DNA of 64,000 nt. It comes from an uncultured Candidatus Obscuribacterales bacterium (GTDB taxonomy: Bacteria > Cyanobacteriota > Vampirovibrionia > Obscuribacterales > Obscuribacteraceae). Below the pieces are notes generated by a model that was not told the DNA's origin, did not search any database, and worked only from the letters and a program-made list of their open reading frames with translations. The stretch's first letter is position 1, and every line of letters begins with the position of its first letter. A program made the translations under genes and the position numbers. The stretch covers positions 62,895-126,894 of the forward strand of contig CAZCZI010000011.1 in the NCBI GenBank assembly GCA_964503045.1, written 5' to 3'. Below are positions 22,896 to 48,986 of the stretch, piece by piece.

Positions 22896-24851
22896 TTGGA
22901 CATTTCCGTCAATCCCATCGTTAAGCTTGCTGCCCGCGTGAGGCACTTCTGGGGTCGCATTTCAGCCCAGAAGCAGTTATTGGTACTCGGGCTGACATGC
23001 ATAGCTGCCCTTGTCACCTTCACGGCATGGCTATGGGTTGCCCGTACGCAGGCAATCATCGACCAATCGGTGCGTCAATTCGGGCTTGCCATGGCGCATG
23101 CCCTGGCCCGTGGCGGCGCTGAGGCGCTGACCCATACCGGCAACCTCGAGGGTCTCAAGTACTACATTCTTACCGAGCGCGGGCAGACGCCGGCTCTGGC
23201 GTATGTCGTCTTCTGCGACAAGGACGGCAACGTTTTGCTGGACCCGACCCCGCAATCGGAGCGGGCTTCAATTTATCCAATCTTCAGGCAAAATCCTGCC
23301 AACTATACGGTTCCCGGGGTCTATCACACAGACATCCCCGGCTATAGATCAATCACTAATATTGCCGTTCCGATGAGAAGGAACAATGAAGAACTCGGAA
23401 TTTGCTGGGTTGGTTTGGACAACCATGACTTCACCATTTTGGGAACGCCCAAAGAGACGCGCTACTTCCTTATGAGCGTGTTCGGATTGGTCGGTCTTTT
23501 GGGTGCGTTGGGTGTGTGGGCTAACTATGCGCTCATTCACACTCCACTGCGCACGTTGTCTCAAGGCGCAACTGAAATTGCCGCAGGACACTTCGGCTAT
23601 CAAATCAAAACCGGGCGTGCCGGGCGTGAAATCGACCAGCTGGTCAACGCATTCAACTACATGTCCAATCGCCTGCAACTCTACGACAAGCACAACGTAG
23701 ACAACTTGATGGCGGAAAGAAACAAATACATCTCCGAGCGCAACAAGTTGGAGTTGGTTTTGATGTCTATTGCCGATGGTGTCGTGGTGCTCGATCGCGA
23801 CAACAAAGTGCAGATCGTCAACCTCGCTGCAACGCAGCTTTTTGCCAAAGAGGCAAAAGAGCTGCTCGGCAAACCGCTCGTATTTTGCACGGAAGGACCA
23901 GACTCGCCGCAAATCTGTCAGGTGGTACAGGCGTTTACGGATACGGTGTCTCCAGGCAGTCTGGAGCCCGTCGAGCAACAAGTTCATTTGGCCGAACTAG
24001 TCGTCAGATTGCACATTGCGCCGATTATCTTGAACAAAGAATTCCTCGGCTCAGTCATGATCATGCACGACATTACGCGTCAAGCCGAACTCGAAAAGAT
24101 GAAAAACGAGTTTATGTCGAACGTCTCTCACGAGCTCAGAACGCCGATTACGTCAATCAAGAGCTATGTCGATACTCTATGCAATCACGGCGAAAAACTA
24201 GACCCGGAAATCTATCGCGAGTTTCTGGAAATCATCGACAACGAAGCCGATCGTTTGATGTACTTAGTCAATGATGTTCTCGAACTCAGTAAGCTCGAGG
24301 AGGGAGATCGAGAGCTGGAGATGGTTCCGACCGAAGTTCATCGTCCATGCGAACGTGCATTGCGCTCACTGAATATGATGGCACGCGATCGCGATATATT
24401 GCTCGAACTCAAAGTCGACGACAACATGCCTCTGATATCGCTCAACGAGGAATCGATAGAGCGAGTCGTCATCAATCTTTTGAGCAATGCCATTAAGTAC
24501 ACGCCGTCAGGCGGAAGCATTACGATATTTGGGAGACTGCACGCAGACCGCGGTGAGATTTCCATTGCCATCAAAGATACCGGCATTGGCATTCCGGAAG
24601 ACGCATTGGCGCACATTTTCGACAGGTTCTATCGGGTCGAGCGCAAGGTGCATACTATAAAAGGAACGGGACTCGGCTTAACCATCGTCAAGAAAATCGT
24701 CGAGAAGCATGGTGGACGCATCACTGTGGAATCAGCCCTGGGCGAAGGCTCCACCTTTACGATATTCCTGCCAATCGACATAGAGGTGGCAATTGCAGAC
24801 GAACTGTCGGTGGTTCCGCCGAGTGAGAGTGCTCACGTGCATAAGAGCTAG
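22896..24851 (+). CDS. Canonical membrane sensor histidine kinase (extracytoplasmic domain-HAMP-PAS-HisKA-HATPase_c)
   Basis: H-box FMSNVSHELRTPITSIKSY, N box VINLLSNAIKYT, G1 KDTGIGIP, F box IFDRFYR, G2 GTGLGLTIVKKIV. HAMP-like EIAAGHFGYQIK...EIDQLVNAFNYM. Confidence 0.9.
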   Translation: MDISVNPIVKLAARVRHFWGRISAQKQLLVLGLTCIAALVTFTAWLWVARTQAIIDQSVRQFGLAMAHALARGGAEALTHTGNLEGLKYYILTERGQTPALAYVVFCDKDGNVLLDPTPQSERASIYPIFRQNPANYTVPGVYHTDIPGYRSITNIAVPMRRNNEELGICWVGLDNHDFTILGTPKETRYFLMSVFGLVGLLGALGVWANYALIHTPLRTLSQGATEIAAGHFGYQIKTGRAGREIDQLVNAFNYMSNRLQLYDKHNVDNLMAERNKYISERNKLELVLMSIADGVVVLDRDNKVQIVNLAATQLFAKEAKELLGKPLVFCTEGPDSPQICQVVQAFTDTVSPGSLEPVEQQVHLAELVVRLHIAPIILNKEFLGSVMIMHDITRQAELEKMKNEFMSNVSHELRTPITSIKSYVDTLCNHGEKLDPEIYREFLEIIDNEADRLMYLVNDVLELSKLEEGDRELEMVPTEVHRPCERALRSLNMMARDRDILLELKVDDNMPLISLNEESIERVVINLLSNAIKYTPSGGSITIFGRLHADRGEISIAIKDTGIGIPEDALAHIFDRFYRVERKVHTIKGTGLGLTIVKKIVEKHGGRITVESALGEGSTFTIFLPIDIEVAIADELSVVPPSESAHVHKS

Positions 24852-33627: not shown

Positions 33628-35094
33628 TTACGAGCCCCCGGATGGGATCGCTGTTGCGACTTTTTGAAAGCGCATTTGAAACCGCGTCGTTTTCGACTCG
33701 AAAGTCACCGTGAGTTGTTGACCGTTGAGTGTGACTAGCTGACGTGCAAGTGCAAGTCCGTGACGGTGCTCCGGAGTCAAGGATGAGCCGCCTTGCTCTT
33801 GGTTTGTGGCGAATCTGTTAAATGGGTCGCTTTTGTCGACACCGCATTCGATTGGCGAGTGCGCTTCCACAGTGACTGTGCATGGGGAGGTTGCATCATC
33901 GAGTGATGAGCCCTCAATGGTGATCTCTCCTTCCGACGCGAAGAGGCAGAAACTGACAATGCGAGTCAGCGCCGTATCGATTTGGTCTGCGTCGCAAAAG
34001 ACCGTTGTTTCCCTTGTGTATGGAGTTACCTTGATCCGATCGGTAATCATCTGCTCCGAAACCTTTTCGGAAAATGAGCTCAGAAGACTGTTGAGGCTCG
34101 TGTTCTTTTTGTTGCTCTCAAATAGGTTCGCCTCGATTTTTTCAAGATCCAATACATCAGAGATCATTGTTACAAGCGAATCAACACCTCGGGCATGGCG
34201 GCGGAATCCGCGGCGCCCCTCAACAGAGATGTCACCGTACACGCCTTTTCCGAACATCTCCAACGACATGCCAAGCGAGGTAAGAGGGGAGCGCAAGTCG
34301 TGACTCACCATCGCAAGGAAATCCTGTTTGCGGCGGCGCGCCATTGCGAGTTCTTTTGAAAGAGAATCGAGTTTGACTTCGATGCGTTTGATTTCATCGT
34401 CACCGCGAAGCATTGGCTCAAGTGTTTTGTTGGCAGTCAATGCTTTGGCTCGACGTTGAAGCGAGCTGATTCTTCCTGCAACATGACGGCTAAAAAAGTG
34501 AAGCAGGACAATGCAAAGAATCAGATTTACGAGAAAGCCCGCTGCGACGATGTATGAGGCATTCGTAGACTTTCGTTCGATTTCGGTCACGGCCTTTTCC
34601 GACCTGCCGGTGAGAATTTGGAACATCGCCTGAAACGGTATTCGCGTCCTCGAGTAGTCTGCAAAGAGTTTTCGTTTGAGATCCAGCGGCAAGAATATCG
34701 TCTCGGGAGGATCGGCCGGAATCAGCACATTAACGGCGTGTTCCAGCTGAACATGGGCAGTCCGCATGTTGGTTCTAATGATGGACAACTCTGCATCGCC
34801 TTTGACTAGTTCCTCGACGGTCGCTAACTTGGCATCGGCAGAGCTTTGAAGACCTCTTATTTTGGTGACGGTATCCTTTCCGCCACCTGCAAAGCTCCAG
34901 TAAAGCAGCGTTTCCAGTTGGGAAAGGTAAAGGGCGCCCAGGCGCGCATAGGTTGTTAGTTGAACCACTCTGCGAGTGTGCGCCTCAGCTTCGGATTCTA
35001 TGTCTAGGCAGAGTGCACCCAGGACGATTGCAACGATAATTCCGGTGGCGGCAGGCAAAATTGTGATTGCCCAGGCGCGTTGTATAAGGGTCAT
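33628..35094 (-). CDS. Histidine-kinase paralog B1: phospho-acceptor His present, ATP-binding boxes degenerate
   Basis: TM-sensor-TM-HAMP-like (RGDDEIKRIEVKLDSL). H-box DFLAMVSHDLRSPLTSL, with a CAC His codon at 34300-34302. The C-terminal domain reads RIVSFCLFAS for the N box, VEAHSPIECG for G1 and EHRHGLALARQL for G2. Confidence 0.85.
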   Translation of the reverse strand: MTLIQRAWAITILPAATGIIVAIVLGALCLDIESEAEAHTRRVVQLTTYARLGALYLSQLETLLYWSFAGGGKDTVTKIRGLQSSADAKLATVEELVKGDAELSIIRTNMRTAHVQLEHAVNVLIPADPPETIFLPLDLKRKLFADYSRTRIPFQAMFQILTGRSEKAVTEIERKSTNASYIVAAGFLVNLILCIVLLHFFSRHVAGRISSLQRRAKALTANKTLEPMLRGDDEIKRIEVKLDSLSKELAMARRRKQDFLAMVSHDLRSPLTSLGMSLEMFGKGVYGDISVEGRRGFRRHARGVDSLVTMISDVLDLEKIEANLFESNKKNTSLNSLLSSFSEKVSEQMITDRIKVTPYTRETTVFCDADQIDTALTRIVSFCLFASEGEITIEGSSLDDATSPCTVTVEAHSPIECGVDKSDPFNRFATNQEQGGSSLTPEHRHGLALARQLVTLNGQQLTVTFESKTTRFQMRFQKVATAIPSGGS

Positions 35095-35120
35095 TTTTCT
35101 CTTCCAAACACAGTATCAGT

Positions 35121-36563
35121 TTATGGCAATTCCCTGCACTTTGGAATCGAGAATGAAAACTTCGAACCCATACCAACCGTGCTTTCAACCCATATCTCGC
35201 CGCCATGCGCATCGACGATGGTTTTGCAGATGAAGAGCCCCAACCCGGAGCCCTTTTGATTTTTGCTGTCTTTGAGTGGATCGACCTGCTCGAAGCGAGA
35301 GAAAACCCGATCCTTCAGTTCGTCCGGAATTCCTTGCCCCTGATCTTCAACTGAAATGACGGTATCATCGGCGGTTTGCAATATCGAAAGAGTGATCGTG
35401 CTTTCTGGCGATGAGAATTTGATTGCATTTGCCAAAAGATTGATGATTACTTGCACGAGCCTGTCAGGATCGGCTTGAATCGCCTGCTCATTTTCTATGG
35501 TTTCAACTACGATTGTCGGTTGCTCACCCCCGGTTTTCATGCTGTCGATCGCGTAGTTGAGTACATCGCTTGGTTTCACATTTTTCACCGAAAGAGTCAT
35601 AGTGCCTCTTTCAATCTGATCGAAATCAATCAGTTCATTAAGAAGTGCAATCAGGCGCTTCAAAGAGCGCGAGGCTGCCGTCAGTGCTGCTTGTCCCTTG
35701 GTGTTTGGAGCACCATATGATTGTCTCTCGACACTGGCCAAAAAAGCGTCCACGTCCAAAAGCGGTTTTCTCAAAGATGAGCTTACTATGTCCAGGTATT
35801 CCTGGCGTTCCAAACGAGCTGATAGAACACCATCCACGATATCGTGAAACGATCTGTCGAAGGCCGCTACTTCATCATCGCCTTTGAGTGGTGGCATCAA
35901 TTCGCGATTTTCGGAGAGGTTCCGGAAGTTGACTTCCATACGCTGAATCTGACTAACGACACTGCGCCTGATTACATACCACATGAGAACAGCGGTTAGA
36001 AGATTGACGATCATGCTGACGATCATTGCATTTTGAATAAGCACCGGTGCATCATCCAGTTGCACTAAACCTGTAGGCGGCTCCATCGCGCGCGCACCCA
36101 GCCAGTCCAGATGCCGAGAGAGAGTCGTCCTTGCTGATTGAACGTCGTCGATCACGCGTTTGGTATCTAGTCTTTTTGCATCTTCGAAGCTTTCTGCCAG
36201 CCGCAGGTTGAGCCCTGTAAGCAAATCGGCGATTTTGTCTGTTCGAGATGATATGTCCGTGTATGGAAGCCCGCAGGAGCGCAGTGCCGACAATTCCGTA
36301 TTCAGCTGTTCCACCTGCGCGGCCAGCGAGCCGAACGCAACTCTCATGTCGGTGTGCATGCAGTCGATGAGGCTGTCTGCGAGGTCGTGCGTCAGATCTG
36401 CCACCTTCAAAACTTGCATGGCGGCGTCAACTGCGACGGTTTGATATCTCAAGGATTCTGTCGCCGAATTGTACATGTTGACGAAGTAGAAGATGGTGAT
36501 CAGTTGCAAAACCAATGGTATGGCGACTAGAATCAGTCCCTTCGTGAATAATCCAACCCGCAC
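35121..36563 (-). CDS. Histidine-kinase paralog A2: intact CA domain, phospho-acceptor His replaced by Ser
   Basis: H-box YLDIVSSSLRKPL, with a TCA Ser codon at 35778-35780. N box IINLLANAIKFS, G1 EDQGQGIP, F box VFSRFEQ, G2 GSGLGLFICK. The GTG start at 36563 directly abuts the stop of B2. Confidence 0.85.
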   Translation of the reverse strand: MRVGLFTKGLILVAIPLVLQLITIFYFVNMYNSATESLRYQTVAVDAAMQVLKVADLTHDLADSLIDCMHTDMRVAFGSLAAQVEQLNTELSALRSCGLPYTDISSRTDKIADLLTGLNLRLAESFEDAKRLDTKRVIDDVQSARTTLSRHLDWLGARAMEPPTGLVQLDDAPVLIQNAMIVSMIVNLLTAVLMWYVIRRSVVSQIQRMEVNFRNLSENRELMPPLKGDDEVAAFDRSFHDIVDGVLSARLERQEYLDIVSSSLRKPLLDVDAFLASVERQSYGAPNTKGQAALTAASRSLKRLIALLNELIDFDQIERGTMTLSVKNVKPSDVLNYAIDSMKTGGEQPTIVVETIENEQAIQADPDRLVQVIINLLANAIKFSSPESTITLSILQTADDTVISVEDQGQGIPDELKDRVFSRFEQVDPLKDSKNQKGSGLGLFICKTIVDAHGGEIWVESTVGMGSKFSFSIPKCRELP

Positions 36564-37997
36564 CTAATTGTTCTCCGCGATTTTGGGTAGGATTATTTGA
36601 AAGCGAATTGACTTGGGTGTTGACGAAAATTTGACTTCGCCCGAGTGCAATCCGATGAGCTGTTTGGCCAATGCCAGACCATGACGATGTTCTGCAATCA
36701 GAGGTTCGGCTTGATCAGTGCTTGCAAATCTGTTGAATGGATCTTTCTTGTTGATTCCTCTTTCAATCGGTCCGAATGCTTCGACGTTAATAGTGACTTC
36801 GAGTGGTTCCTCAGTGTGTGCTGTAACCAAAACCTCTTGAGTGCTCGCATACAAGCAAAGAGCAATGATACGATTCAATGCTGCTTCAAACTGATCTGGA
36901 TCACAACATATCGTGCACTGCCCACACGGGTTGACTGAGAGGCGGTCGGTCAAGAACTGTTCCGAAACCGACTCCTGAAGCTGCTTCAGGATTTGATTCA
37001 ATTCTGTATTGGACTTGGCGCTTTGAAGGAGATTCGCTTCAATCTTTTCGAGATCGAGCAAATCGGAAATGATCGTGACGAGACGATCCATGTTTTTTGC
37101 GTGCATGCGAAACAGCCTTCTTCCCTCTACCGAGAATTCGCCGTAGACGCCTTTGCCGAATAGATCGAGCGACATCTGAAGCGATGTAAGCGGCGATCTG
37201 AGATCGTGGCTGACTAATGCGAGAAACTCCTGTTTGCGTTTTCTTGCTGATTCCAATTCGCTAGATAAGGCAATAAGCTTCACTTCAAGCTGTGCTATTT
37301 CGTCTCCTCCGACCAGCTGAGGTTGCACCGAACGATTGCAAGAGAGTGCCAAAGCGCTTTTTTGAAGCGAATTCATTCGGCTTGCGATGTGTCTAGCAAA
37401 GAGATAAAGAAGCACTGTGCACATAAGCAAGTTGAAAGTGAAACCGGTTGCGACAATATATGCGCTAGCCAGCGCCTTGTTTTGCGTGTTTTTGAGTGTG
37501 ATAGCCGACCGAGCAAGCAGAATGTCTGCGACTTGTTTGAATAACTGCCGGGTCCGCGCATAGTAGCCATAGAGGCGTTTTCTCTCGACACCAGTCAACG
37601 CTAGTTTGTCTCCACCACGCGCAATAAAGGTGTTTTGGGTATCTATATAGGCTTCATGTGCCTTCTGGCTTTCAACAATGAGTGGTGCAACTTCTTTGTC
37701 GTCACGATAAAGCTTGGCGAATGTCTGTAGCTTTTCGGCGGACTGCTTTTGCAGAGAGCGCAAGGTTTGTTCTGATTCACTGCCATGCGCTCCAAAGGTC
37801 CAATAAAATATCGTTTCAAGCTGAGCAAGGTAGATGTTACCGAGCTGTCCGTCTGTTCCAAACCCCCTAACGATTGCCGCATGTTTTTTTATCACCGAGA
37901 CAATATCAAGACAAAGTGCTCCTAATGTCGAGGAGATGATTATCCCGGCAATTGCCGGCAGTAAAGTTATGGCCAAAGCCCGTTGCGTCAGAGTCAT
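36564..37997 (-). CDS. Histidine-kinase paralog B2: phospho-acceptor His present, ATP-binding boxes degenerate
   Basis: H-box EFLALVSHDLRSPLTSL, with a CAC His codon at 37206-37208. The CA region reads RIIALCLYAS / VEAFGPIERG / EHRHGLALAKQL. I chose the ATG at 37997 (MTLTQRALAITLLP) by homology with the B1 N-terminus. The longest ORF extends to 38048. Confidence 0.8.
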   Translation of the reverse strand: MTLTQRALAITLLPAIAGIIISSTLGALCLDIVSVIKKHAAIVRGFGTDGQLGNIYLAQLETIFYWTFGAHGSESEQTLRSLQKQSAEKLQTFAKLYRDDKEVAPLIVESQKAHEAYIDTQNTFIARGGDKLALTGVERKRLYGYYARTRQLFKQVADILLARSAITLKNTQNKALASAYIVATGFTFNLLMCTVLLYLFARHIASRMNSLQKSALALSCNRSVQPQLVGGDEIAQLEVKLIALSSELESARKRKQEFLALVSHDLRSPLTSLQMSLDLFGKGVYGEFSVEGRRLFRMHAKNMDRLVTIISDLLDLEKIEANLLQSAKSNTELNQILKQLQESVSEQFLTDRLSVNPCGQCTICCDPDQFEAALNRIIALCLYASTQEVLVTAHTEEPLEVTINVEAFGPIERGINKKDPFNRFASTDQAEPLIAEHRHGLALAKQLIGLHSGEVKFSSTPKSIRFQIILPKIAENN

Positions 37998-38088
37998 CAG
38001 TTGCTTGGTGCGACCACAAAACAGAAATTCCCGTTGCAGAGGCAACAATAACGGCGTCTCGGGATCTCAGAAGAATAGCCGGTTATGA

Positions 38089-39207
38089 CTATCTTTGATC
38101 GATTGCCGCGTACTTGAGGTTAGAAGCGCCAGTGTATTCAGCACGCGGGCGAATCAGTCTATTGTTGGAATACTGTTCGAGCACGTGTGCCGCCCAGCCG
38201 GACATGCGGCTGATGGCGAAGATTGGGGTGAACAAATCTACTGGAATGCCCAACATGTAATAGACCGATGCCGAGTAGAAGTCGACGTTGGCATACAGTC
38301 CTTTGTCTTTGTGCACAAGCTCTTCAATTTCGCGCGACATCGTAAACCACTTCAGCTCATTGGCGCGCTTACCGAGTTCTTCAGACATCCTTCTGAGGTG
38401 GAATGCTCTTGGATCTTCAGTCTTGTACACACGGTGACCGAAGCCCATCACCTTCTTGTGCTCTTCGAACATCTTTTCGATGTATCCGCGCACTTTTTCT
38501 GGAGAGCCGATGTCCAAAAGCATTTTGATCACTTCTTGGTTGGCTCCACCGTGCAGTGGTCCCTTGAGGGTTCCAATTGCGGCGGTGATCGCGGAGTGAA
38601 TATCGGTTTCGGTTGCCGCTGCAACGCGAGCAGCAAACGTCGAGGCGTTGAGTTCGTGGTCGGCATGCAGAATCAATGCGACGTCGAGAGACTTGGTCTC
38701 TACTTCATCGGGAAGTTTGCCACTCTTGAGCAAATAAAGGAAGTTAGCTGCGATGCTGATGTCTTCCTTGGGTGCCACGGGTTCTTTGCCGTTGCGGATG
38801 TTGTCCCAGTAGGCAACGATTGTCGGAAGCTGTGCCGTCAATCGAGTCGCTTTGCGAACGTTGGCTTGACGACCGTTGTCTTGAGCATCGGGGTCGTACA
38901 TCGAAAGAAGCGACACGGTCGTTCTTAAAACTTCCATAGGGGACGCTTTCTTTGGATACGCCTTCATTGCCTTAACGACGTCATCAGGCAACTTGCGATT
39001 TACCTTGAGGTCTTTGGTGATTGTTTCGAGTTCGGTCTTTGTCGGCAGTCTGCCGTACCACAGCAAATAGACGACTTCCTCGAAGGTGGAATGCTCCGCC
39101 AGGTCGTGAATGTCATAACCTTGATAAATCAGTCTTCCTTCTTTGCCATTAACATCGCAAATCGAAGAAGATGCGGCTACTATGTCCTCAAGTCCTGCCT
39201 TGACCAT
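38089..39207 (-). CDS. gltA: Citrate synthase (short ~370-aa type)
   Basis: GLEDIVAASSSICDVNG..GRLIYQGYDIHDLA, the catalytic-His context in LILHADHELNAST, GFGHRVYKTEDPRA, and NVDFYSA. Confidence 0.92.
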   Translation of the reverse strand: MVKAGLEDIVAASSSICDVNGKEGRLIYQGYDIHDLAEHSTFEEVVYLLWYGRLPTKTELETITKDLKVNRKLPDDVVKAMKAYPKKASPMEVLRTTVSLLSMYDPDAQDNGRQANVRKATRLTAQLPTIVAYWDNIRNGKEPVAPKEDISIAANFLYLLKSGKLPDEVETKSLDVALILHADHELNASTFAARVAAATETDIHSAITAAIGTLKGPLHGGANQEVIKMLLDIGSPEKVRGYIEKMFEEHKKVMGFGHRVYKTEDPRAFHLRRMSEELGKRANELKWFTMSREIEELVHKDKGLYANVDFYSASVYYMLGIPVDLFTPIFAISRMSGWAAHVLEQYSNNRLIRPRAEYTGASNLKYAAIDQR

Positions 39208-39341: not shown

Positions 39342-41663
39342 TTGTCTTCCAATTCAGCCCATAGAGCCCAACTTACATCAATAGCTCGTGTGTTGAGGCG
39401 ACTAGAAGAAGCAGCTGGGAGCAGTGTTTCTGCCTCGGCAAAAAATCCTCCTGCAATCAGATTCGCATTATCGGGGGGATTTTCGGTGTTGAGCCTGGCA
39501 GTGTTGGGACTTTGCCCACAACATTATGAAGGTTCGATAATCGAACGACTGATTCGCAAAGCGAAGACAGCCATTGGTGTTGAGACTCCGCTTTGCATTG
39601 ACCAAACAAAATTTTCAAGCGCTTGCCGAAACGAGCTTGTGGACGACTTTGCTGTGCTTGCTGCTTCCAATGACGCGCTTGAGGAAGCTCTAATCGATGC
39701 GGCCAAAGAGTTGTCTTCAAACGTGTTGCAGGATCCGCTGCTTTGCGGATGGGCATACCAAGCCCAAATCGGCGCCAAAGTCAGCACCAAGGAGAGACCG
39801 AAAGAATCGTCGCAGACGCGTGAAAGTGATATCGCCTTCTTGACCCAGTGGTTTACACCGGATTGGATCAGCACTTTTCTGGTTGATCAAACGCTTACAT
39901 CAAAGACTTCGAATGCCAATTCACCAGTGGCGAGCTTTTGGGATCCCGCATGCGGAGCTGGTCATATTCTGATTCGCGCTCTTGAGAAAATGGCGGTCGC
40001 CGATGGCGAGAATCTGCATCAATGCCTCGACAACTTGTTTGGTTGCGACATCGATTCTGTCGCACTTCAACTTGCTTCGACCGCTGTTTACTTGAAGTGC
40101 CGAAGCATCGAATTATCTGCGCCCCGCGATTCGCTTAGTGAACTTCCGCTACCTAAGCTCTTTTACGTGTCTTCATCGCCGTCGTATCCGACCGAATGTG
40201 GAAGTTTGCTTCTGGGAATTGGGCAGGATTTCGATCGATCTAAACTCAAGCTCAAACAACTCAACGGCACCGAGCATGTCGCACAAGAAGTGCTTCCCGA
40301 GCACTTTTCGTGCATTGCGACAAACCCGCCCTATTTGAGTCACCGATTGCTTCCATTTTCAATCAGTGAACTGTTGCGAAAACACTACAAGCATTCCCGT
40401 TACGATCTTTACGCTGCATTTATCGATCTGTGTTTGCGAAAGCTGCGCGATGATGGACGTTTTGGCATGATCTGTCAGCAGAGTTTTTTGACTATTCAAA
40501 GGTATAAGAAGCTGCGCGAAATTCTGATGAGCCAGTGCGGAATCGATTCGTTGGTGATGCTCGGTTCTGGATCTTTTGCTATGAGAGCCGGTGAAAAGGT
40601 GAATAACGCCATTATCGTCGCGCAGAAAATGGAGGCTGATCGACAAGATGAAATCACGGTCAAGTATTGGCGGTTATTGGGGAACCTCGAAAAGCTGGAA
40701 GCGGAGCAAAAGGGAATTGGAGCGGTGGAGTTCGATTCCATCAGCGATTCTGACTTACGCACTTTGAGCTCTTCGATTGACGGTGCGCCGATTGTTCCCT
40801 GGTGTCCCGCGCCAATCGCTAAGTTGTTTACTACTCTGCCTGCGCTAGAAAACAAAGATGGCGACATTCGTCTCGTGAATGGCCTTTTCACTTGCAACAA
40901 TAGCTACTTTGTCTCGCATCATCGTGATGTTGTCGAGGGCGAGCGCCACTTGTATGTGCCTTACGACAAAGGCGGCGGGCACAAGTGGTACAAACGCACA
41001 CCGTACATGCTTCGCTGGGAAGGCGATGGTAAGCGGATTCGTGAGTATCGTTCGTCGCGCGGGCAGTCTTCCAAGTTGCCGGGTGAAGAGTTCTACTTTA
41101 AGACCGGCATCACATACTCCTATATTGGAACGCGCGACTTCAGGGCGCGCCTTTTGAGCCCTGGATCTATTTTCGATATTGCAAGCTCGGCTGTCTTCAG
41201 CGAGTCTGTCGACATCTATTATTTGCTGGGGTTTCTCAATTCCACGCTGGCACGATACATGCTCTTTGTGCTCAATCCTACGATCAATTTTCAAATTGGC
41301 GATCTCAGGCGCTTGCCTTTTGCCAAGCCGGATAAGTCCACCGAAGTTGCCGTCTCGAAACTGGCCACGGAAGCCGTCGAGTTGGCGATGCAACTGGAGC
41401 GGTACGACTCGGATTCTCCGGATTTCGTCGAATTCGTCAATGGTGCAAAAGCTGAAGCCAAAGCGAGATTCGATGCCATAAACAAACGAGAGTGGGCAAT
41501 TCAGGACGAGATAGACCAACTCATTTATGCGCTCTACAAAATCGATAGCACCACGCGTAGAGTCATTGCCAAAGATCCTATGATCAAGCGCTCGGCGAAA
41601 ACCGCTCTGGCAAGATTTGCAAACGAAACAGAACAGCCACCCCGAGAGGTGGCTGTTCAGTAG
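39342..41663 (+). CDS. Orphan gamma-class N6-adenine DNA methyltransferase, PglX/type-IIG-like, no nuclease domain
   Basis: TQWFTPDWISTFLV (the fYTP-like motif of the family), motif I DPACGAGHIL, motif IV IATNPPYL, and the PglX/MmeI-like YVPYDKGGGHKWYKRTPYMLRWEGDG. TTG start. Confidence 0.8.
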   Translation: MSSNSAHRAQLTSIARVLRRLEEAAGSSVSASAKNPPAIRFALSGGFSVLSLAVLGLCPQHYEGSIIERLIRKAKTAIGVETPLCIDQTKFSSACRNELVDDFAVLAASNDALEEALIDAAKELSSNVLQDPLLCGWAYQAQIGAKVSTKERPKESSQTRESDIAFLTQWFTPDWISTFLVDQTLTSKTSNANSPVASFWDPACGAGHILIRALEKMAVADGENLHQCLDNLFGCDIDSVALQLASTAVYLKCRSIELSAPRDSLSELPLPKLFYVSSSPSYPTECGSLLLGIGQDFDRSKLKLKQLNGTEHVAQEVLPEHFSCIATNPPYLSHRLLPFSISELLRKHYKHSRYDLYAAFIDLCLRKLRDDGRFGMICQQSFLTIQRYKKLREILMSQCGIDSLVMLGSGSFAMRAGEKVNNAIIVAQKMEADRQDEITVKYWRLLGNLEKLEAEQKGIGAVEFDSISDSDLRTLSSSIDGAPIVPWCPAPIAKLFTTLPALENKDGDIRLVNGLFTCNNSYFVSHHRDVVEGERHLYVPYDKGGGHKWYKRTPYMLRWEGDGKRIREYRSSRGQSSKLPGEEFYFKTGITYSYIGTRDFRARLLSPGSIFDIASSAVFSESVDIYYLLGFLNSTLARYMLFVLNPTINFQIGDLRRLPFAKPDKSTEVAVSKLATEAVELAMQLERYDSDSPDFVEFVNGAKAEAKARFDAINKREWAIQDEIDQLIYALYKIDSTTRRVIAKDPMIKRSAKTALARFANETEQPPREVAVQ

Positions 41664-41707: not shown

Positions 41708-43360
41708 CTACTTCTTCTTCGACTTCACATCAGTCAGAATTTCGCCTCTAACCTTGGAAGATGCACCCGGTATCAATGTCGCTTCCGTAGCGGCTTCACC
41801 GGTGAACTCTTGCTTGAACTCGGCTTCGAATTGGTCGCCGGGTTTAACAACAGCTTCTTGTCCTCTGATAATCGTGTCGGCAATCAGGAATCCACCCGGA
41901 AGTCCGGAGACAACGCCCATGGCAAAGCCTTTAAGCCTGCGATGCGGAACGTTGGTGCCCACCGGATGCAAGAATGCAAACGATGGATTCATTGCGCCGA
42001 CGACACCATATGCAAGCGGAACGATACCGAAACTGAATACGCCACCTGCAGACGCGGCGCCTCTGATTGCGAGGTGGGCGGCTTGGTGCTTCAACTGTGT
42101 CGATAGCGGGGCTGCTACTTCACCGTTGTGGTTGACGCCAAGAACTCGACCCTCTGCTTTGTTCTTTACGATGCGTGCGTGTTGTGCTGGTTGAGCAACC
42201 AGGGGAAGATGTTCGCCGTTGTGGTTGATGATTTCGTCAAACTGGAGTCCAACGGCTCCGTTGGCTCGCATCCAGCGCTTAGCGGACAGTTCTGCATGAA
42301 GAATTCTGCGAGCTGGTTCGGCCGATGATACATGACCGCGAACCAAATCTCCTTTTTTGGCAATTAACTTGCCACCGATGGTGATGTCAACGTTCAACCG
42401 GGCTTCGATGGGTTGACCGACTTTGGCTGTTTTGCTGCTGAGCGAACTCATCATCGTGATTGGGAAGGTGGCTCCACTTACGATCTTTGTTTTGCCGACT
42501 TCGTCTTGAATTTCTTTCCAGACCACTTCGGCTTTTTGCGGCACGTCTGCATCGTTGTCGATGACGATAACTGCAGAGGCCTCTTCAGAGGAGTTCGATT
42601 CTGCCGCGGCTTCGATGTCCTGAATTGCTTCTTTTGCAGATTCAACTTTGGGTTCAGCAGCCGTCGGTTCAACAGCCGTCGGTTCAACAGCCGTCGGAGT
42701 AACGGCCGTCGGAGTAACGAGTGTCGGAGTAACGACTGTCGAAGTAGCAACTGGCGAAGTTGCAACTGGTTGTTGTGTTGCAGCTTGATCGACTTGTGTT
42801 TCACCTGCTTGAGTGTGATCTCTGGATTGATCTTGCGGTTGAGAATTATCTATCTCCGGGCACTCTTGCATGTTGAACGGCACCATGTTGTGGTCGAACC
42901 GTTGCGCTGGTCCTTTCGTGGTTTCAGAAGGGACTGGCACCGCCGTTGGTGTGGCTGTCGATGCTAATTTCGACGGAGCTGCCACCGCTCGAGTCGGAGC
43001 TTGAGTCGCGGCTTGAGTCGCGGCTTGAGTGCTAGGAGTTTTAGCAGAAATTTGCGAAGATGCCTGAGTGGACGGAGCTGGCGCGTCGTTCCACCCTCTA
43101 ACTTCTTCAATGATCATTCCGTTTCCATCGCCCGGGACTGGTGCGCCTAGAGGCGCAACTTGAGGTGCGTTTGCTTCTGTCAGTGGACCATTCATTGGAA
43201 GCTGAAATGCAGCAGTCTTACCATGGGTCGAGCGAGCTGCTGTATTTGCCGAGCCACTTTGCGCCAGGACCGGCAGTGCAAGGTTGCCACCCACCAGTGA
43301 AATAGTGACGGCGATTGCAAGCATACCTGCTGCCGGTTTCCTTGAATCACGCTTGATCAT
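41708..43360 (-). CDS. Secreted protein with Thr/Pro/Ala/Val pentapeptide repeats and a C-terminal beta-rich domain
   Basis: Signal peptide MLAIAVTISLVGGNLALPVLAQS. TQAATQAATQA and (T[AL]V[TE]P)n repeats are encoded by 15-nt units near 42655-42745. The C-terminal IVSGATFPITMMSSLSSKTAKVGQPIEARL..GGKLIAKKGDLVRGHV pattern is reminiscent of TrbI/VirB10-type barrels, but this is a weak resemblance. Confidence 0.55.
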   Translation of the reverse strand: MIKRDSRKPAAGMLAIAVTISLVGGNLALPVLAQSGSANTAARSTHGKTAAFQLPMNGPLTEANAPQVAPLGAPVPGDGNGMIIEEVRGWNDAPAPSTQASSQISAKTPSTQAATQAATQAPTRAVAAPSKLASTATPTAVPVPSETTKGPAQRFDHNMVPFNMQECPEIDNSQPQDQSRDHTQAGETQVDQAATQQPVATSPVATSTVVTPTLVTPTAVTPTAVEPTAVEPTAAEPKVESAKEAIQDIEAAAESNSSEEASAVIVIDNDADVPQKAEVVWKEIQDEVGKTKIVSGATFPITMMSSLSSKTAKVGQPIEARLNVDITIGGKLIAKKGDLVRGHVSSAEPARRILHAELSAKRWMRANGAVGLQFDEIINHNGEHLPLVAQPAQHARIVKNKAEGRVLGVNHNGEVAAPLSTQLKHQAAHLAIRGAASAGGVFSFGIVPLAYGVVGAMNPSFAFLHPVGTNVPHRRLKGFAMGVVSGLPGGFLIADTIIRGQEAVVKPGDQFEAEFKQEFTGEAATEATLIPGASSKVRGEILTDVKSKKK

Positions 43361-43586: not shown

Positions 43587-45716
43587 CTATCTTCTTTGTT
43601 GTTGCGGCTGCTGTTGTTGCTGCTGTCTTTGACGTATCGCTTGAACTTCCTGTTCGGACAGCGGTCGGTCGTTGCGACGCACAACCGCGGTTTGACCTGC
43701 CGGATTCGTCCACGTGATGTTGCCGTCGGCGCCGACTTGCGCTTTTCCTTCGAAGTATCTGTATGCCGGTTGTCCCGTTCGAGGATCCACAGCGGCCCGG
43801 CGCATCGGCTGACCGGTCTTCTCGTCGATTTGAGGTCTGCCTTGATTGTCGGTGACGTTTTCTATCACAGGGGTTCTCCAGCCCATCTTGCCGTCCTGTG
43901 AGATCTGTCCATATTGCCAATCTTCGATCTTTTCATTTGGATAACTGATTTGTAGTCTTGAAGGTTCACCTTTATCGTTATATGTGACGCGAGTGAATAC
44001 GCCTTCTGCTCCCAAGATCATTTCTGGCTTGAGCTTGCCGTCGGCTCCTTTGGTGCCGAGGATTTCGCTGCCATCTGGTTCCATAGCACGGCTCTTGCCG
44101 GTTGGTTTGCCGTCGGCTCCTAATGTAGTCATTGTCACCGAGCCATCTTTTCCAGCTTCCACCTGCATCTTGAACTCTTTGCCGGAGCTGTCTTTCCAGC
44201 TGTCGGTATTGCCGACGCGAGTGACTGATGTTTCTGCGCCGGGAACGATCTTGACCTTACCGTCGGTGCCGCGTTCTTGTTTGTCCGGTCCCTTTTGATC
44301 GACTCTTGATACATTGCCTTGAGCGTCGTAGTGGAAAATGAACTTGTTGCCGTCTCTTGTTTCTGTGCGCATCAAGCGATCGTTTCCATCCGGTCCTTTT
44401 TCGGTGACGGTGATGCGATCTTTTTCGTGACGTGCATCGCTGTTTTGACGGAAAGTTCTGGTACCATCGCTCGATTGCCAAATGCGATCGCCGTTAGCCA
44501 TCACGTTTCTGCGTTCGCCGGTGGACTGATCGAGATTTACGGCAGCAACCCGATCGTTGCCTTTAGCAAACGGCAACTTGCCGTTTTGCATTTCGGCTTG
44601 TAGTGTCTGCAGGTTGGCCACGGCTTTGCGTGGATCTGTCTCGGGCTTGGTCAACTCTTGAATCCGTTGAACTTCTTTAGGATCGAGCTTTCCTCCAGGC
44701 GGAGCCTTGAGTGTCACCCACTCGTCGGCGACCGGCGGCTGACCGGGGACTTGTGGTTTTTTCACTGTCATCTCAGTGATGTTGCCGTTTTTGTCCTTCG
44801 CGGTATAGCCGTTTAGTGTTTGATACTCCTTGCCGTCTTGGCGAACTGCTTTCGAGTATTGATAGTCGGTGGTGCTGCCGTCAGGCTTCCTTTCCGAGAG
44901 AATCGGACGCGCCGGCTGCAAATAATACTTGCCGTCTTGTCCGCGAACGGGCATCATCACGTCTTTGTCGGTACGCTGTAGCCCGACTCCACTTTGTCTG
45001 TCGACTCTGTAGTTGTCTTTGTCGACATATTCCAGGCGCATTCCTGGTGCTAACTCGACGTTTTTCACACCTTTGACTGCGGCATCCGGTTTGTATGTTC
45101 CATCCGCCTGAAGCTTCTCTACTGTCCAATTGCCGTCTGCGCCGGGCTTTCCGCGCTCGGCCAGAACTTCTTTGCCGGCTCCATCCTTTCTGTATATTTC
45201 AAAACTTCCGACCTTGTTTTTATCGTCGGCATAGGTCAGTTTAGTTCTTTCTTGTGGTGTCTGAATTTCGGTTGGGCGTTGCTTGTCGTCAAACTTGATT
45301 CCATATCCATTTGGATAAACTCTATCTTTTATCTTGCCGTTTTCGAAATGCTCTACGGCTCCATTTTGCAGCTTTCTTTCGGTGAGCTGTTGGTTTTTGT
45401 CGTACTTTTCCACCATGCCATTGCTGTGGGTTCGCACGATTGAGCCGTCAGCGCCTCTGGCGTCTTGAAACTGAGGTTGCCCACCTTGCTGTTGGGCGCG
45501 AATGACGTCGCCTTGTTGCTGTGAGAAACGCCCATCGCCGCGTTGTTGGGCAATCATCATGTCGTGATAGGTTTGCCCGCCCGGTCTGTAAGTGAGCGCC
45601 GGATCACCGACACGTCCCTGTCGGCCGCCGAATGCATCATAAACTGCCCCAGTTAGATCTACCGGTTGTGCCGGATTCGGTTGAGCTTCACGACGTTTGT
45701 CATCGCCTTCTGCCAT
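43587..45716 (-). CDS. Large charged Asp-Gly/Lys-rich repeat protein (degenerate YD-like repeats) with poly-Gln C-terminus
   Basis: 709 aa with no signal peptide. Recurrent xDGxx(Y/F/W) beta-hairpin-like units occur throughout (FIFHYDAQGNVSRVDQ, RVTYNDKGEPSRLQISY, GADGNWTVEKLQADGTYKPD). The C-terminus is IRQRQQQQQQPQQQRR. Confidence 0.5.
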   Translation of the reverse strand: MAEGDDKRREAQPNPAQPVDLTGAVYDAFGGRQGRVGDPALTYRPGGQTYHDMMIAQQRGDGRFSQQQGDVIRAQQQGGQPQFQDARGADGSIVRTHSNGMVEKYDKNQQLTERKLQNGAVEHFENGKIKDRVYPNGYGIKFDDKQRPTEIQTPQERTKLTYADDKNKVGSFEIYRKDGAGKEVLAERGKPGADGNWTVEKLQADGTYKPDAAVKGVKNVELAPGMRLEYVDKDNYRVDRQSGVGLQRTDKDVMMPVRGQDGKYYLQPARPILSERKPDGSTTDYQYSKAVRQDGKEYQTLNGYTAKDKNGNITEMTVKKPQVPGQPPVADEWVTLKAPPGGKLDPKEVQRIQELTKPETDPRKAVANLQTLQAEMQNGKLPFAKGNDRVAAVNLDQSTGERRNVMANGDRIWQSSDGTRTFRQNSDARHEKDRITVTEKGPDGNDRLMRTETRDGNKFIFHYDAQGNVSRVDQKGPDKQERGTDGKVKIVPGAETSVTRVGNTDSWKDSSGKEFKMQVEAGKDGSVTMTTLGADGKPTGKSRAMEPDGSEILGTKGADGKLKPEMILGAEGVFTRVTYNDKGEPSRLQISYPNEKIEDWQYGQISQDGKMGWRTPVIENVTDNQGRPQIDEKTGQPMRRAAVDPRTGQPAYRYFEGKAQVGADGNITWTNPAGQTAVVRRNDRPLSEQEVQAIRQRQQQQQQPQQQRR

Positions 45717-46761: not shown

Positions 46762-48147
46762 TTAAGGTCCATTTGAGAAGCGTGCAGGATCTGCGCCTTC
46801 GCTCATATCGCTTACGCCTACCACTACAGGGGTGGGAGCTGCGATTGAGCTTCCCAGCGGATTGTTGTCCAAAGGACCACTTACTGTTGGTTGAACAGAT
46901 GTCACACCAGGCATTGAGATCGTTGGTGAAGGGGTGCGGCTGATTGTTCCGGCCGAGGTGACAGCAACGCCTGAGTTGGAGGTTGTAGCGTAGCCGGTGG
47001 TGGGGGTGGTGGAACCCTCAAAAAGTGTTGGGTCTTGCGCAACGGATCCGTACCAGTTTGCGAAGTGAGTCCAGCCAGCTTCAACTGCTGGAAGGAATCC
47101 GGCGCCTTGAGTGTAGTTCAATTGTTGAACGAAATTTTGCACCGCAATTATCGAATTGCCGTTTTGCGATTGGCGGTTCCAACCGACGGTGAACATATTG
47201 CGAAGTCCAATGTCTTGTCCCGGGTCGACGGTGTAGGAAGTGGCATGGCCGGTGGCGTCTTGAACCATGAATGTTTCAAGTTGATTGGTCATTCCATTTG
47301 CCGATGGCGTGAGATGCACGCCGTGGAATTCTACTGTGAGCTCAAGGCTCTGACCGGATGTTTGAAGATGTCCTTGGTGATCGAGCGAGATTTGAAGAAG
47401 GTATGCGCCGGCGCCTTGGGGATCATTGACGAGAACGTAGCTGATGCCGCTTCCTGGTTGAGTAATCACATCACCAGGATTTATCCACTTGCCGGCTCCG
47501 GTGGGGTCGACGGTGAATCCAGCGGGCAGACCGTTGAATACTTTGGCGAGGCTGGTGAGGGTTCCATATCCAGTCAATCCTTCCGGATGCTCGACTGCTC
47601 TTGATGCAGTGCAATGAAGACGGGCTGGTTTTCCAAGAAACGGGATTTGGTTGAGTCCAGGAAAACTAGACATGTTAACGAACGGGCCGACATCGTAAGT
47701 GCAATCGGCAGTGTATTCGTACACATTGGCGGCGGTGTCGATTGGCGCAGGAACTGGAGTGTTCGGACCAACCATGCGGGTTGTGCTGGTGTTTTGGTTG
47801 CGTTCTTCGACGTAGAGATTCAATCCGGAGTTGGCGAAACCAGCTACTGGCTTCATTTTCACCCAGCTGGCGAAGCCGGAGTTCATAAGCTGCAAGCAGT
47901 TGTAGGTAGAACTTGCCAGAGCGCGGTCGTAGCTGGTTTGAGTAGCGGCGCTGACTGCGGAGTAAGTAGTTATGAAATAGGCTCCGGCGACGCTTGCAGA
48001 GATCATAACCAGATTGATGAGACCGAAGATTGACAGGAAAACCACGAACATGCAAAGGGTGAACTCAACGATGGAGCTGCCCTTTTGGGTTCTTTTGCTT
48101 TGGGTTCTTCTGTTGGTGTTGTACATTTTTTGAAAATCCTTGGGCAT
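46762..48147 (-). CDS. TadE/TadG-like (Flp-pilus pseudopilin-like) N-terminal domain protein, unusually large
   Basis: KGSSIVEFTLCMFVVFLSIFGLINL matches the TadE N-terminal motif. It is followed by a ~400-aa Gly/Thr/Ser/Asn-rich extracellular-looking region. Confidence 0.55.
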   Translation of the reverse strand: MPKDFQKMYNTNRRTQSKRTQKGSSIVEFTLCMFVVFLSIFGLINLVMISASVAGAYFITTYSAVSAATQTSYDRALASSTYNCLQLMNSGFASWVKMKPVAGFANSGLNLYVEERNQNTSTTRMVGPNTPVPAPIDTAANVYEYTADCTYDVGPFVNMSSFPGLNQIPFLGKPARLHCTASRAVEHPEGLTGYGTLTSLAKVFNGLPAGFTVDPTGAGKWINPGDVITQPGSGISYVLVNDPQGAGAYLLQISLDHQGHLQTSGQSLELTVEFHGVHLTPSANGMTNQLETFMVQDATGHATSYTVDPGQDIGLRNMFTVGWNRQSQNGNSIIAVQNFVQQLNYTQGAGFLPAVEAGWTHFANWYGSVAQDPTLFEGSTTPTTGYATTSNSGVAVTSAGTISRTPSPTISMPGVTSVQPTVSGPLDNNPLGSSIAAPTPVVVGVSDMSEGADPARFSNGP

Positions 48148-48311: not shown

Positions 48312-48986
48312 CTAGCCCTTATCGACTTTGTAGCCGACACCATGGACTGTTTTGATGATGTCCTCGCCGCCCGCTTGAGCGAGCTTCTTGCGGATTTTCT
48401 TCAGGTGCGTATACAGGGTTTCGCTGGTGGCATGAGAATCAGAACTCCACACATACTCAAGTAGAGAATCTGTGCCTACGACTTTGTCGGCATGTCTAAT
48501 GAGAAACTCCAGTATGGAAAATTCCTTCGGTTGAAGATCCACTTCGGTTTCACCGATTAAGACTTGGCGTTTCGCCGTGTCAATCGTGACGCCGCTGGCA
48601 GTCAAGGATGTGCCGGAGAAATTTGAAGGACGCCTCAACAGTGCGCGCAGTCGTGCTGATAGCTCTCTTACGTCGAACGGCTTGGTCAAGTAGTCATCAG
48701 CGCCTGCGTCGAGCCCCTCTTCTTTCTCTTTGACCTCGCCTTTACCGGTCAAAAGCAATACCGGAGTGTGTGCGCCGCTCGACCGAAAACGCTTTAGAAC
48801 TTCCAGCCCACTTTGACCGGGCAGACCGATGTCCAAAACCACAATGTCAAATTTGAAGCATTCAAGTTTCTCTTGTGCATCCAAACCATCGCCTGAGTGC
48901 TCAACCATGTGACCTTCAAACTTCAGCCACTGCTGAATTCGGGTAGCCAGGTCTTGGTCATCTTCAACGAACAGAATCTTTGCCAT
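48312..48986 (-). CDS. OmpR-family response regulator
   Basis: Receiver domain KILFVEDDQDL...DIVVLDIGLPGQSGLEV...TGKG...DDYLTKPF. Winged-helix output LQPKEFSILEFL...TVHGVGYKV. Confidence 0.92.
   Translation of the reverse strand: MAKILFVEDDQDLATRIQQWLKFEGHMVEHSGDGLDAQEKLECFKFDIVVLDIGLPGQSGLEVLKRFRSSGAHTPVLLLTGKGEVKEKEEGLDAGADDYLTKPFDVRELSARLRALLRRPSNFSGTSLTASGVTIDTAKRQVLIGETEVDLQPKEFSILEFLIRHADKVVGTDSLLEYVWSSDSHATSETLYTHLKKIRKKLAQAGGEDIIKTVHGVGYKVDKG

Follow-up and report, generated by a model that had tools for sequence, protein, structure and literature searches.

A probable split histidine kinase with reciprocal motif losses between adjacent sensor kinase paralogues of an Obscuribacterales bacterium

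Four tandem genes on the minus strand, in the order B2, A2, B1 and A1, were found in a 64,000-nucleotide stretch of DNA from an uncultured Candidatus Obscuribacterales bacterium (contig CAZCZI010000011.1, positions 62,895 to 126,894 of the forward strand; hereafter the window). They encode membrane sensor kinase paralogues of two kinds: the B proteins kept the phospho-acceptor His and lost the ATP-binding boxes, and the A proteins lost the His and kept the boxes. B1 is probably the acceptor half of an obligate A:B kinase, in which the catalytic and ATP-binding (CA) domain of A would phosphorylate the His of B in trans. It belongs to a sizeable set of reciprocal kinase modules in Obscuribacterales, some split and some fused, which seems not to have been described before. 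The features on which this reading is built are as follows.

33628..35094, minus strand: B1, membrane sensor kinase paralogue, 488 aa (open reading frame, Pfam, AlphaFold2)
34090..34344, minus strand: dimerisation and histidine phosphotransfer (DHp; HisKA) helical hairpin of B1, residues 251-335 (Pfam HisKA covers 256-322)
33631..34089, minus strand: degenerate CA (HATPase_c-like) domain of B1, residues 336-488
34300..34302, minus strand: codon CAC of the phospho-acceptor His265 of B1, inside the H-box SHDLRSPL
32171..33625, minus strand: A1, partner paralogue, 484 aa (HATPase_c 107.2 bits, HisKA 13.4 bits)
36564..37997, minus strand: B2, second B-type paralogue, 47% identical to B1 (open reading frame, Pfam, alignment)
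35121..36563, minus strand: A2, second A-type paralogue, 480 aa (HATPase_c 105.6 bits, HisKA 16.5 bits)

Motif state and fold of the B and A proteins

B1 consisted of two transmembrane helices, a helical periplasmic bundle, a HAMP-like linker, the DHp hairpin and the CA domain. Its His265 was located in FLAMVSHDLRSPL, and the phospho-acceptor codon of B2 (37206-37208) was likewise CAC. The Pfam HisKA scores of B1 and B2 were 45.2 and 51.0 bits, both above the cut-off of 26.9 bits; codons and scores agree with an earlier note, made from the letters of the window, which had reported perfect H-boxes around His265 of B1 and His264 of B2. The number 264 is counted from ATG 37997, which aligns with the start of B1. 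When the mechanical open reading frame 36564-38048 was used, B2 began at TTG 38048 and the same His was numbered 281; the true start is probably ATG 37997, giving 477 aa, because the first 17 residues of the longer frame match nothing in any relative. No Response_reg match was obtained for B1 or B2 with Pfam. From the His to H+4 both proteins read H-D-L-R-S, compared with the phosphatase motif H-E/D-x-x-T/N, and Ser at H+4 was equally common among intact relatives of the lineage (48/111).

The HATPase_c scores of B1 (15.8 bits) and B2 (18.1 bits) fell below the Pfam cut-off of 26.4 bits. Boxes were assigned with MAFFT alignments of the four paralogues and of 17 family members, and with hmmalign, for which a DHp+CA profile was made from 31 canonical relatives. 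The Asn position of the N box was occupied by Phe in B1 and Leu in B2 (hmmalign, MAFFT). The D/G/G positions of G1 read A-S-I in B1 and A-G-I in B2, DxGxG having become AHSPI in B1, and the G/G/G positions of G2 read E-R-G in both, GxGLG having become EHRHGLA in B1; the F-box FNRF was retained in B1. The strings quoted earlier for these regions (RIVSFCLFAS, RIIALCLYAS, AHSPIECG, AFGPIERG, EHRHGLALA and PFNRFA) were all located in B1 or B2, and the three alignments set them under the boxes of the intact paralogues, upholding the claim that N, G1 and G2 are erased. Boxes that were present but shifted, which the earlier note had named as a possible objection, were revealed by neither profile nor alignment in B1 or B2, and the objection fails because the alignments put the strings exactly at N, G1, F and G2.

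The A proteins showed the mirror image. The His position was taken by Thr267 in A1 (MSTSLRKPL) and by Ser262 in A2 (VSSSLRKPL), and no other conserved His was seen in the DHp domain of A in the 17-member alignment or the module column statistics. The CA domain of A1 was intact (NLLSNALKFS with Asn385, DQGEGIP, FSRFEQ and GSGLGL), and the N, G1, F and G2 boxes of A2 were all perfect. Both kinds of protein run from a transmembrane helix through a helical sensor, a second transmembrane helix and a HAMP-like linker to DHp and CA, and share the linker signature N..L.P.L.G.DE; A and B are only 14-19% identical and are old, diverged paralogues.

The genes of each pair were closely joined. Two nucleotides separated the TAA of B1 from the ATG of A1, the TAG of B2 was followed directly and in the same reading frame by the GTG of A2 (36561-36566, minus strand), and the spacing between A2 and B1 was 26 nt. 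A scan of 31600-38400 for promoters and terminators gave matches at about the level of shuffled sequence, and no operon boundaries. Read-through or one point mutation at the B2 TAG would yield a fused B-A protein of ~975 aa, as long as the fused relatives P0143, P0156 and P0162.

Although the ATP boxes of B were erased, the domain that had carried them was retained. A length of about 130 aa had been proposed for it; a long domain was present, and at ~150 aa (336-488) it was slightly longer than that. The AlphaFold2 model of full-length B1, based on a 46-sequence alignment, had a mean predicted local distance difference test score (pLDDT) of 91.6. It contained a long helix entering the DHp hairpin (helices H234-282 and H291-321) and a complete alpha/beta sandwich over residues 330-476 (E330-333 through E470-476), with a 29-residue loop at the place of the ATP lid. 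Foldseek comparison with the PDB matched only DHp-CA kinase cores. The best match was the kinase region of RetS (6dk7, 6dk8), with a target-normalised template modelling score (TM) of 0.69-0.76; RetS was also the best PDB match of B1 by sequence (E 9e-7), and DivL was matched with a TM of 0.65-0.70.

Ratios of nonsynonymous to synonymous substitution rates (dN/dS) were taken from closer orthologue pairs (L005/L006 and L007/L008/L009), because the comparisons of B1 with its 72% orthologue and with B2 were saturated at synonymous sites. The degenerate CA domain of B gave 0.10, 0.075 and 0.067, values close to those of the intact CA domain in A (0.12, 0.10 and 0.038), and the DHp domain of A, which has no His, gave 0.057, 0.086 and 0.022, showing strong constraint. 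The suggestion that the domain of B is kept as a non-catalytic module thus found support in the high pLDDT, in an intact alpha/beta sandwich that matches kinase cores, above all RetS, and in a dN/dS of 0.07-0.10.

Conservation of the pair and its fused relatives

When 5.8 billion proteins were searched for relatives of B1 with a word-indexed method, just four with the same defect were recovered; the remaining matches were to complete kinases, for the most part those of Candidatus Obscuribacter or Melainabacteria. An exhaustive search of 1.84 billion cluster representatives (50% identity) with a B-seeded profile gave seven stand-alone B-type representatives in total, and an A gene lay directly after B for all of them (7/7). 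Genomic context was examined for the seven representatives and for five Obscuribacterales metagenome-assembled genomes. B was followed by A in 11/11 loci from such genomes and from metagenomes, down to 30% identity; the loci with the pair were the window (two pairs), L001, L002-4, L005, L006, L007, L008, L009, L032 and L033. The B-A junctions ranged from a 2-nt gap through direct abutment to an overlap of up to 26 nt, and included TAATG, TGATG and ATGA. At every locus, B carried (S/G)HDLRSPL and lacked Asn, G1 and G2, and A kept the four ATP boxes with Thr, Ser or Arg at the His position (Arg in three orthologues of the 17-member alignment). The genes flanking the pair varied between lineages, showing that the pair alone is conserved. 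When the B proteins were compared pairwise, their identities closely tracked those of the A proteins (r = 0.99), a sign of co-inheritance. The two pairs of the window arose through duplication of the whole B-A pair as a unit.

After the seven stand-alone B proteins, the best matches of the B profile were single chains of ~1000 or ~1250 residues with two complete kinase modules, a double architecture that Pfam confirmed in six examples. The best 150 profile hits were sorted by the state of their modules, with H or h for His present or absent, C for at least three and c for at most one of four criteria (Asn, G1 Asp, G1 glycines, G2 glycines), an underscore for an absent domain and a question mark for an ambiguous one. 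Calling of boxes by regular expression was rejected in favour of profile-anchored columns; it had misjudged P0118, in which both CA domains score well. The classes were as follows.

hC-Hc: 35
hC-H?: 5
hC-H_: 4
Hc-hC: 4
H_-hC: 9
H?-hC: 1
HC-HC (both modules intact): 28
hC-HC: 2
HC-hC: 1
Hc-HC: 1
HC-H?: 1
H?-Hc: 1

About 60 of the fused chains among these hits combined one A-type with one B-type module, and the loss of His and the loss of the ATP boxes were always in separate modules. The classes hC-hC and Hc-Hc, or a module that had lost both elements, did not occur among the best 150 hits. One protein of 2017 aa had four intact modules. In the B-type modules (n=57), the His, an Asp or Glu at H+1 and a Thr, Ser or Asn at H+4 were each present in 57/57; the N-box Asn was present in 0/57, the G1 Asp was not lost throughout, and the G2 glycines were degenerate. 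In the A-type modules (n=71), the N-box Asn and the G1 Asp were retained in 71/71 and the G2 glycines in 70-71/71, and the His in 0/71; Asp or Glu stood at H+1 in 46/71, and Thr, Ser or Asn at H+4 in a minority. The missing His was replaced by Ser (26), Asp (9), Arg (9), Gln (5), Lys (4), Asn (3) and others, among them Gly, Tyr, Phe, Val and Ala.

The AlphaFold2 model of the fused A-B protein P0131 (991 aa) contained two complete modules, with the dead CA domain folded (pLDDT 80.7). Two fused proteins are publicly named, MBA3995352.1 (Cyanobacteria bacterium DS2.3.42) and MBY0357195.1 (Candidatus Obscuribacterales bacterium), both with generic annotation. Chains with two tandem membrane-kinase modules occurred among P0073-P0215 (e.g., P0076, P0131, P0077 and P0147); their public annotation was generic as well, and none seems to have been described.

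Intact doubles, intermediates and reciprocal forms make up a series, which suggests an origin by tandem duplication followed by reciprocal degeneration. We lean, on balance, towards a broader reading, that Obscuribacterales, which are non-photosynthetic relatives of cyanobacteria, evolved a class of hard-wired asymmetric kinases from tandem doubles by reciprocal loss, present as abutting pairs and as single-chain 'pseudo-dimers'. On this reading, one module would have been left with just its ATP-binding catalytic domain, and the other with just the acceptor His and the helix that faces the regulator.

Proposed mechanism, alternatives and known systems

Autophosphorylation needs both an acceptor His and an ATP-binding CA domain, and each of the two proteins has lost one of them; B would be unable to bind Mg-ATP. 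In the mechanism that we propose, B and A would be co-translated from their abutting or overlapping reading frames and would assemble 1:1, the simplest form being a four-helix bundle in which their DHp domains heterodimerise. His265 of B would be phosphorylated in trans by the CA domain of A, and an unlinked response regulator would receive the phosphate from B. In B, the dead CA domain is kept as a folded, non-catalytic module, probably as the 'parked' CA of an asymmetric dimer or as a control on access to the His. The outcome would be a kinase with hard-wired asymmetry, whose two periplasmic sensor domains differ. The existence of fused chains argues for a direct A-B partnership with 1:1 stoichiometry (the Rosetta-stone argument), and a direct partnership is also argued for by the two losses, which always sit in different modules. 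The comparative data point to phosphorylation of B only when A is present.

Several points weigh against this proposal. We infer heterodimerisation and trans-phosphorylation, and likewise what the dead domain does and the regulator at the output, from sequence comparison, and the trans step presupposes a DHp geometry that permits trans rather than cis phosphorylation. The profile used for the census was seeded with B, so the census is biased to B-containing proteins. The model of the fused P0131 was a single-chain prediction with a predicted template modelling score of 0.56. No response regulator adjoined the split B-A pairs of the window, L001, L002, L005, L007, L032 or L033. Finally, the dead CA domain was wholly missing from the B-type module of 13 fused relatives, which makes a general essential role for it doubtful; it is more likely to be modulatory or structural (a parked CA, or gating of the His) than essential.

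A different quaternary structure would leave the chemistry unchanged. A and B could be separate homodimers that meet transiently, in the manner of CheA3/CheA4, or could form A2B2 arrays, and A would still phosphorylate B; this possibility differs from an A:B complex only in how the subunits are assembled. Split kinases with transient kinase-substrate contact are known (CheA3/CheA4, PMC3591291), and the DHp domains of A and B are both well conserved and could homodimerise. However, the fused single chains impose 1:1 stoichiometry and hold the two modules close, and the constraint on the DHp domain of A (dN/dS 0.02-0.09) is easier to explain if it forms half of a bundle that bears the His. We regard separate homodimers as unlikely.

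The resemblance to RetS raises another alternative, in which B is a kinase-dead, His-bearing sensor that forms a heterodimer with a complete kinase encoded elsewhere in the genome and inhibits it, or acts as a phosphatase, while A is a functionally separate protein. The kinase at 50669-52120, which has a CHASE3 domain, could be such a target, a canonical relative being present within the same window. RetS was the best PDB match of B1 by both sequence and fold (E 9e-7; TM 0.69-0.76), it also keeps its H-box without G boxes (PMC5992135), and B has the H+1 Asp and the H+4 Ser or Thr of phosphatase-active kinases. By contrast, a RetS-like B would leave unexplained the coupled, His-less A that follows it in 11/11 loci, the perfect ATP site that A retains without an acceptor of its own, and the fused chains that always pair an A-type with a B-type module; furthermore, B has no receiver domains, unlike RetS. 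We consider a RetS-like role decidedly improbable.

That the pairs are decaying duplicates whose complementarity is coincidental, or that the Ser or Thr of A serves as the acceptor and makes A a GHKL protein of serine-kinase-like kind (Thr and Ser stand at the His position of A1 and A2, and Ser is the commonest replacement, 26/71), is scarcely credible, since a dN/dS of 0.02-0.12 over all domains rules out decay, losses in different modules in ~60/60 fused proteins are very unlikely to arise by chance, and the residue that stands in for the His often cannot be a regular phospho-acceptor, with Asp, Arg, Gln, Lys, Asn, Gly, Tyr, Phe, Val and Ala all represented. A Ser/Thr acceptor in A was rejected on this wide variation.

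With the A:B kinase as the preferred reading, known systems were compared. FasB/FasC of group A Streptococcus is the nearest functional precedent, as a heterodimer proposed from genetics and a two-hybrid assay. These are adjacent, co-transcribed, full-length kinase-like membrane proteins, which showed only heterotypic interaction in the two-hybrid assay; the essential His comes from FasC, which can do without its HATPase domain, FasB needs just DHp and HATPase, and the authors term FasC a pseudokinase (PMC12675982). The likeness to B-A lies in an adjacent, co-transcribed, full-length pair with divided labour. However, FasB and FasC have six transmembrane helices and are of the HPK10/LytTR type with the regulator FasA in the operon, whereas B and A are of the HisKA type with two transmembrane helices. 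FasB also keeps its DHp His residues, and cis phosphorylation was left open. FasBC is a single system; unlike for B-A, no fused versions and no family with reciprocal motif erasure are described for it.

RetS has an intact H-box and a retained, degenerate HATPase domain without G boxes, and it cannot autophosphorylate (PMC5992135; PDB 6dk7, 6dk8, 7n0e). Like B, it keeps the H-box and a CA domain without G boxes, and it acts by contact with another kinase. Unlike B, it is a hybrid kinase with two receiver domains, a build in which the receivers draw phosphate off a complete partner, and its partner GacS is complete, has its own His and is encoded by an unlinked gene. RetS inhibits its partner, whereas B is proposed to complete A.

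Neither CheA3 nor CheA4 of Rhodobacter sphaeroides autophosphorylates alone; the ATP-binding partner phosphorylates its counterpart on the His, and the counterpart goes on to serve the regulator (PMC3591291). ATP binding and acceptor His are thus on two polypeptides, as they are, at the sequence level, in A and B. The CheA proteins differ from A/B in their class, in the position of the His on a P1 domain, in the physical absence of the missing domains and in their place in a chemoreceptor cluster. In contrast to split kinases, A and B are both full length, with degenerate domains that are folded and under purifying selection. In SMART, 3.66% of HisKA proteins have no HATPase domain and, the authors speculate, could be split kinases; reciprocal pairs were not described (PMC3591291).

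Two adjacent kinase genes also serve one regulator in HK1/HK2-TcrA of M. tuberculosis (Rv0600c/Rv0601c/Rv0602c) (PMC3544749, PMC9321153). Unlike A and B, HK1 and HK2 are short proteins of one domain each without retained pseudo-domains, and their regulator is in the operon. From work of Shrivastava et al. in 2006-2009, HK1 reportedly holds the ATP-binding domain and HK2 the His domain, as one kinase cut in two. DivL of Caulobacter, which appeared among the fold matches of B1, is a natural His-less kinase-like protein; unlike A, it is not known to have a complementary partner of the B kind. Mutants of EnvZ, NtrB and CheA that lack the His complement mutants that lack the ATP site, the His-less subunit phosphorylating the subunit with the dead ATP site within a dimer. 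These laboratory heterodimers have the very arrangement proposed for A and B, but they are artificial, whereas the A:B pair occurs in nature, is conserved and seems to be obligate.

In full-text searches of openly accessible literature, neither kinase pairs with reciprocal degeneration nor tandem double kinase modules were found described. Papers on YiaZ/PP_2664, the ChrS pseudokinase, Ramlibacter phytochromes and Streptococcus agalactiae describe other designs.

Histidine kinases are treated as symmetric homodimers, and structures show one subunit firing at a time; kinase dimers act asymmetrically (PMC3904827). The choice between cis and trans phosphorylation must be settled for each kinase separately, and an A:B pair, in which one subunit could only give and the other only receive, would fix both questions by design. 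If the proposal is true, it would prove that trans-phosphorylation in an asymmetric bundle suffices for signalling, and the pairs would be built-in two-input integrators, since each half bears a sensor domain of its own. Asymmetric kinase mechanics, the part played by the 'idle' CA domain and the combining of two sensor inputs could all be studied cleanly in such a pair. The family also displays domain-level reciprocal degeneration after duplication, with intact, intermediate, fused and split forms all surviving. Genome annotation labels its members as ordinary or hypothetical kinases, and because of this generic annotation, censuses that count HisKA-only and HATPase-only proteins as orphans or split kinases would misread the family.

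Other reciprocal pairs and neighbouring genes

Reciprocal pairs of two further architectures, both with PAS domains and both independent recurrences of the same logic, were found in the lineage at the following coordinates.

L001, 2792-7251: PAS-type pair
L022-L025, 2803-7160: PAS-type pair
L026-L028, 3181-6845: PAS-type pair

In the PAS-PAS pair (L001, L022-25), a 719-aa protein whose CA domain is intact and whose His is replaced by Arg or Ser was followed by a partner of ~720 aa with SHDLRSPL and a dead CA domain. In the PAS pair of L026-28, a 607-aa PAS protein had an intact CA domain but Thr in place of the His, and its gene was overlapped by 4 nt by that of a 614-aa CHASE3-HAMP-PAS protein with a dead CA domain. 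The His-less, ATP-competent gene came first in the PAS-type pairs, opposite to the order in the window.

Response regulators occurred near the PAS-type pairs. At L029, an OmpR-type regulator (4231-4920) was divergent from the fused B-A kinase P0077, and was the sole regulator directly beside a member of the set. The regulators beside the L029 fused kinase and near the PAS-type pairs are only a hint at the output. The earlier note had named the OmpR-type protein at 48312-48986 of the window as a candidate partner of B, and nothing was found for it except proximity of ~10 kb. That gene lies beside a 461-aa open reading frame without Pfam match (46762-48147) and near the complete CHASE3 kinase at 50669-52120, which has the same SHDLRSPL H-box as B; a second complete kinase of the window is at 22896-24851. 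An unusual fusion of receiver, OmpR-type DNA-binding and Ser/Thr protein kinase domains (531 aa; L026 1311-2906, minus strand, also in L027 and L028) adjoined the PAS/CHASE3 reciprocal pair.

An IS1595-family transposase, an RDD protein and a SpoIIM-like protein followed A1 (28981-31712) and also its L002/L003 orthologue (L002 3649-6353), indicating that the transposase is an old shared insertion beside the pair. TPR-repeat proteins were encoded a few kb from the pair in L005 (5295-5966), L007 (4074-4778), L002 (8255-9457) and L001 (18876-21251), and may only mirror the frequency of such proteins in the lineage. Beyond B2, the window contained an Eco57I-like restriction-modification methylase (39342-41663), a 550-aa open reading frame without Pfam match (41708-43360) and an RHS-repeat protein (43587-45716). 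The AT skew was strongly negative, at -0.22 to -0.30, between 42 and 46 kb.

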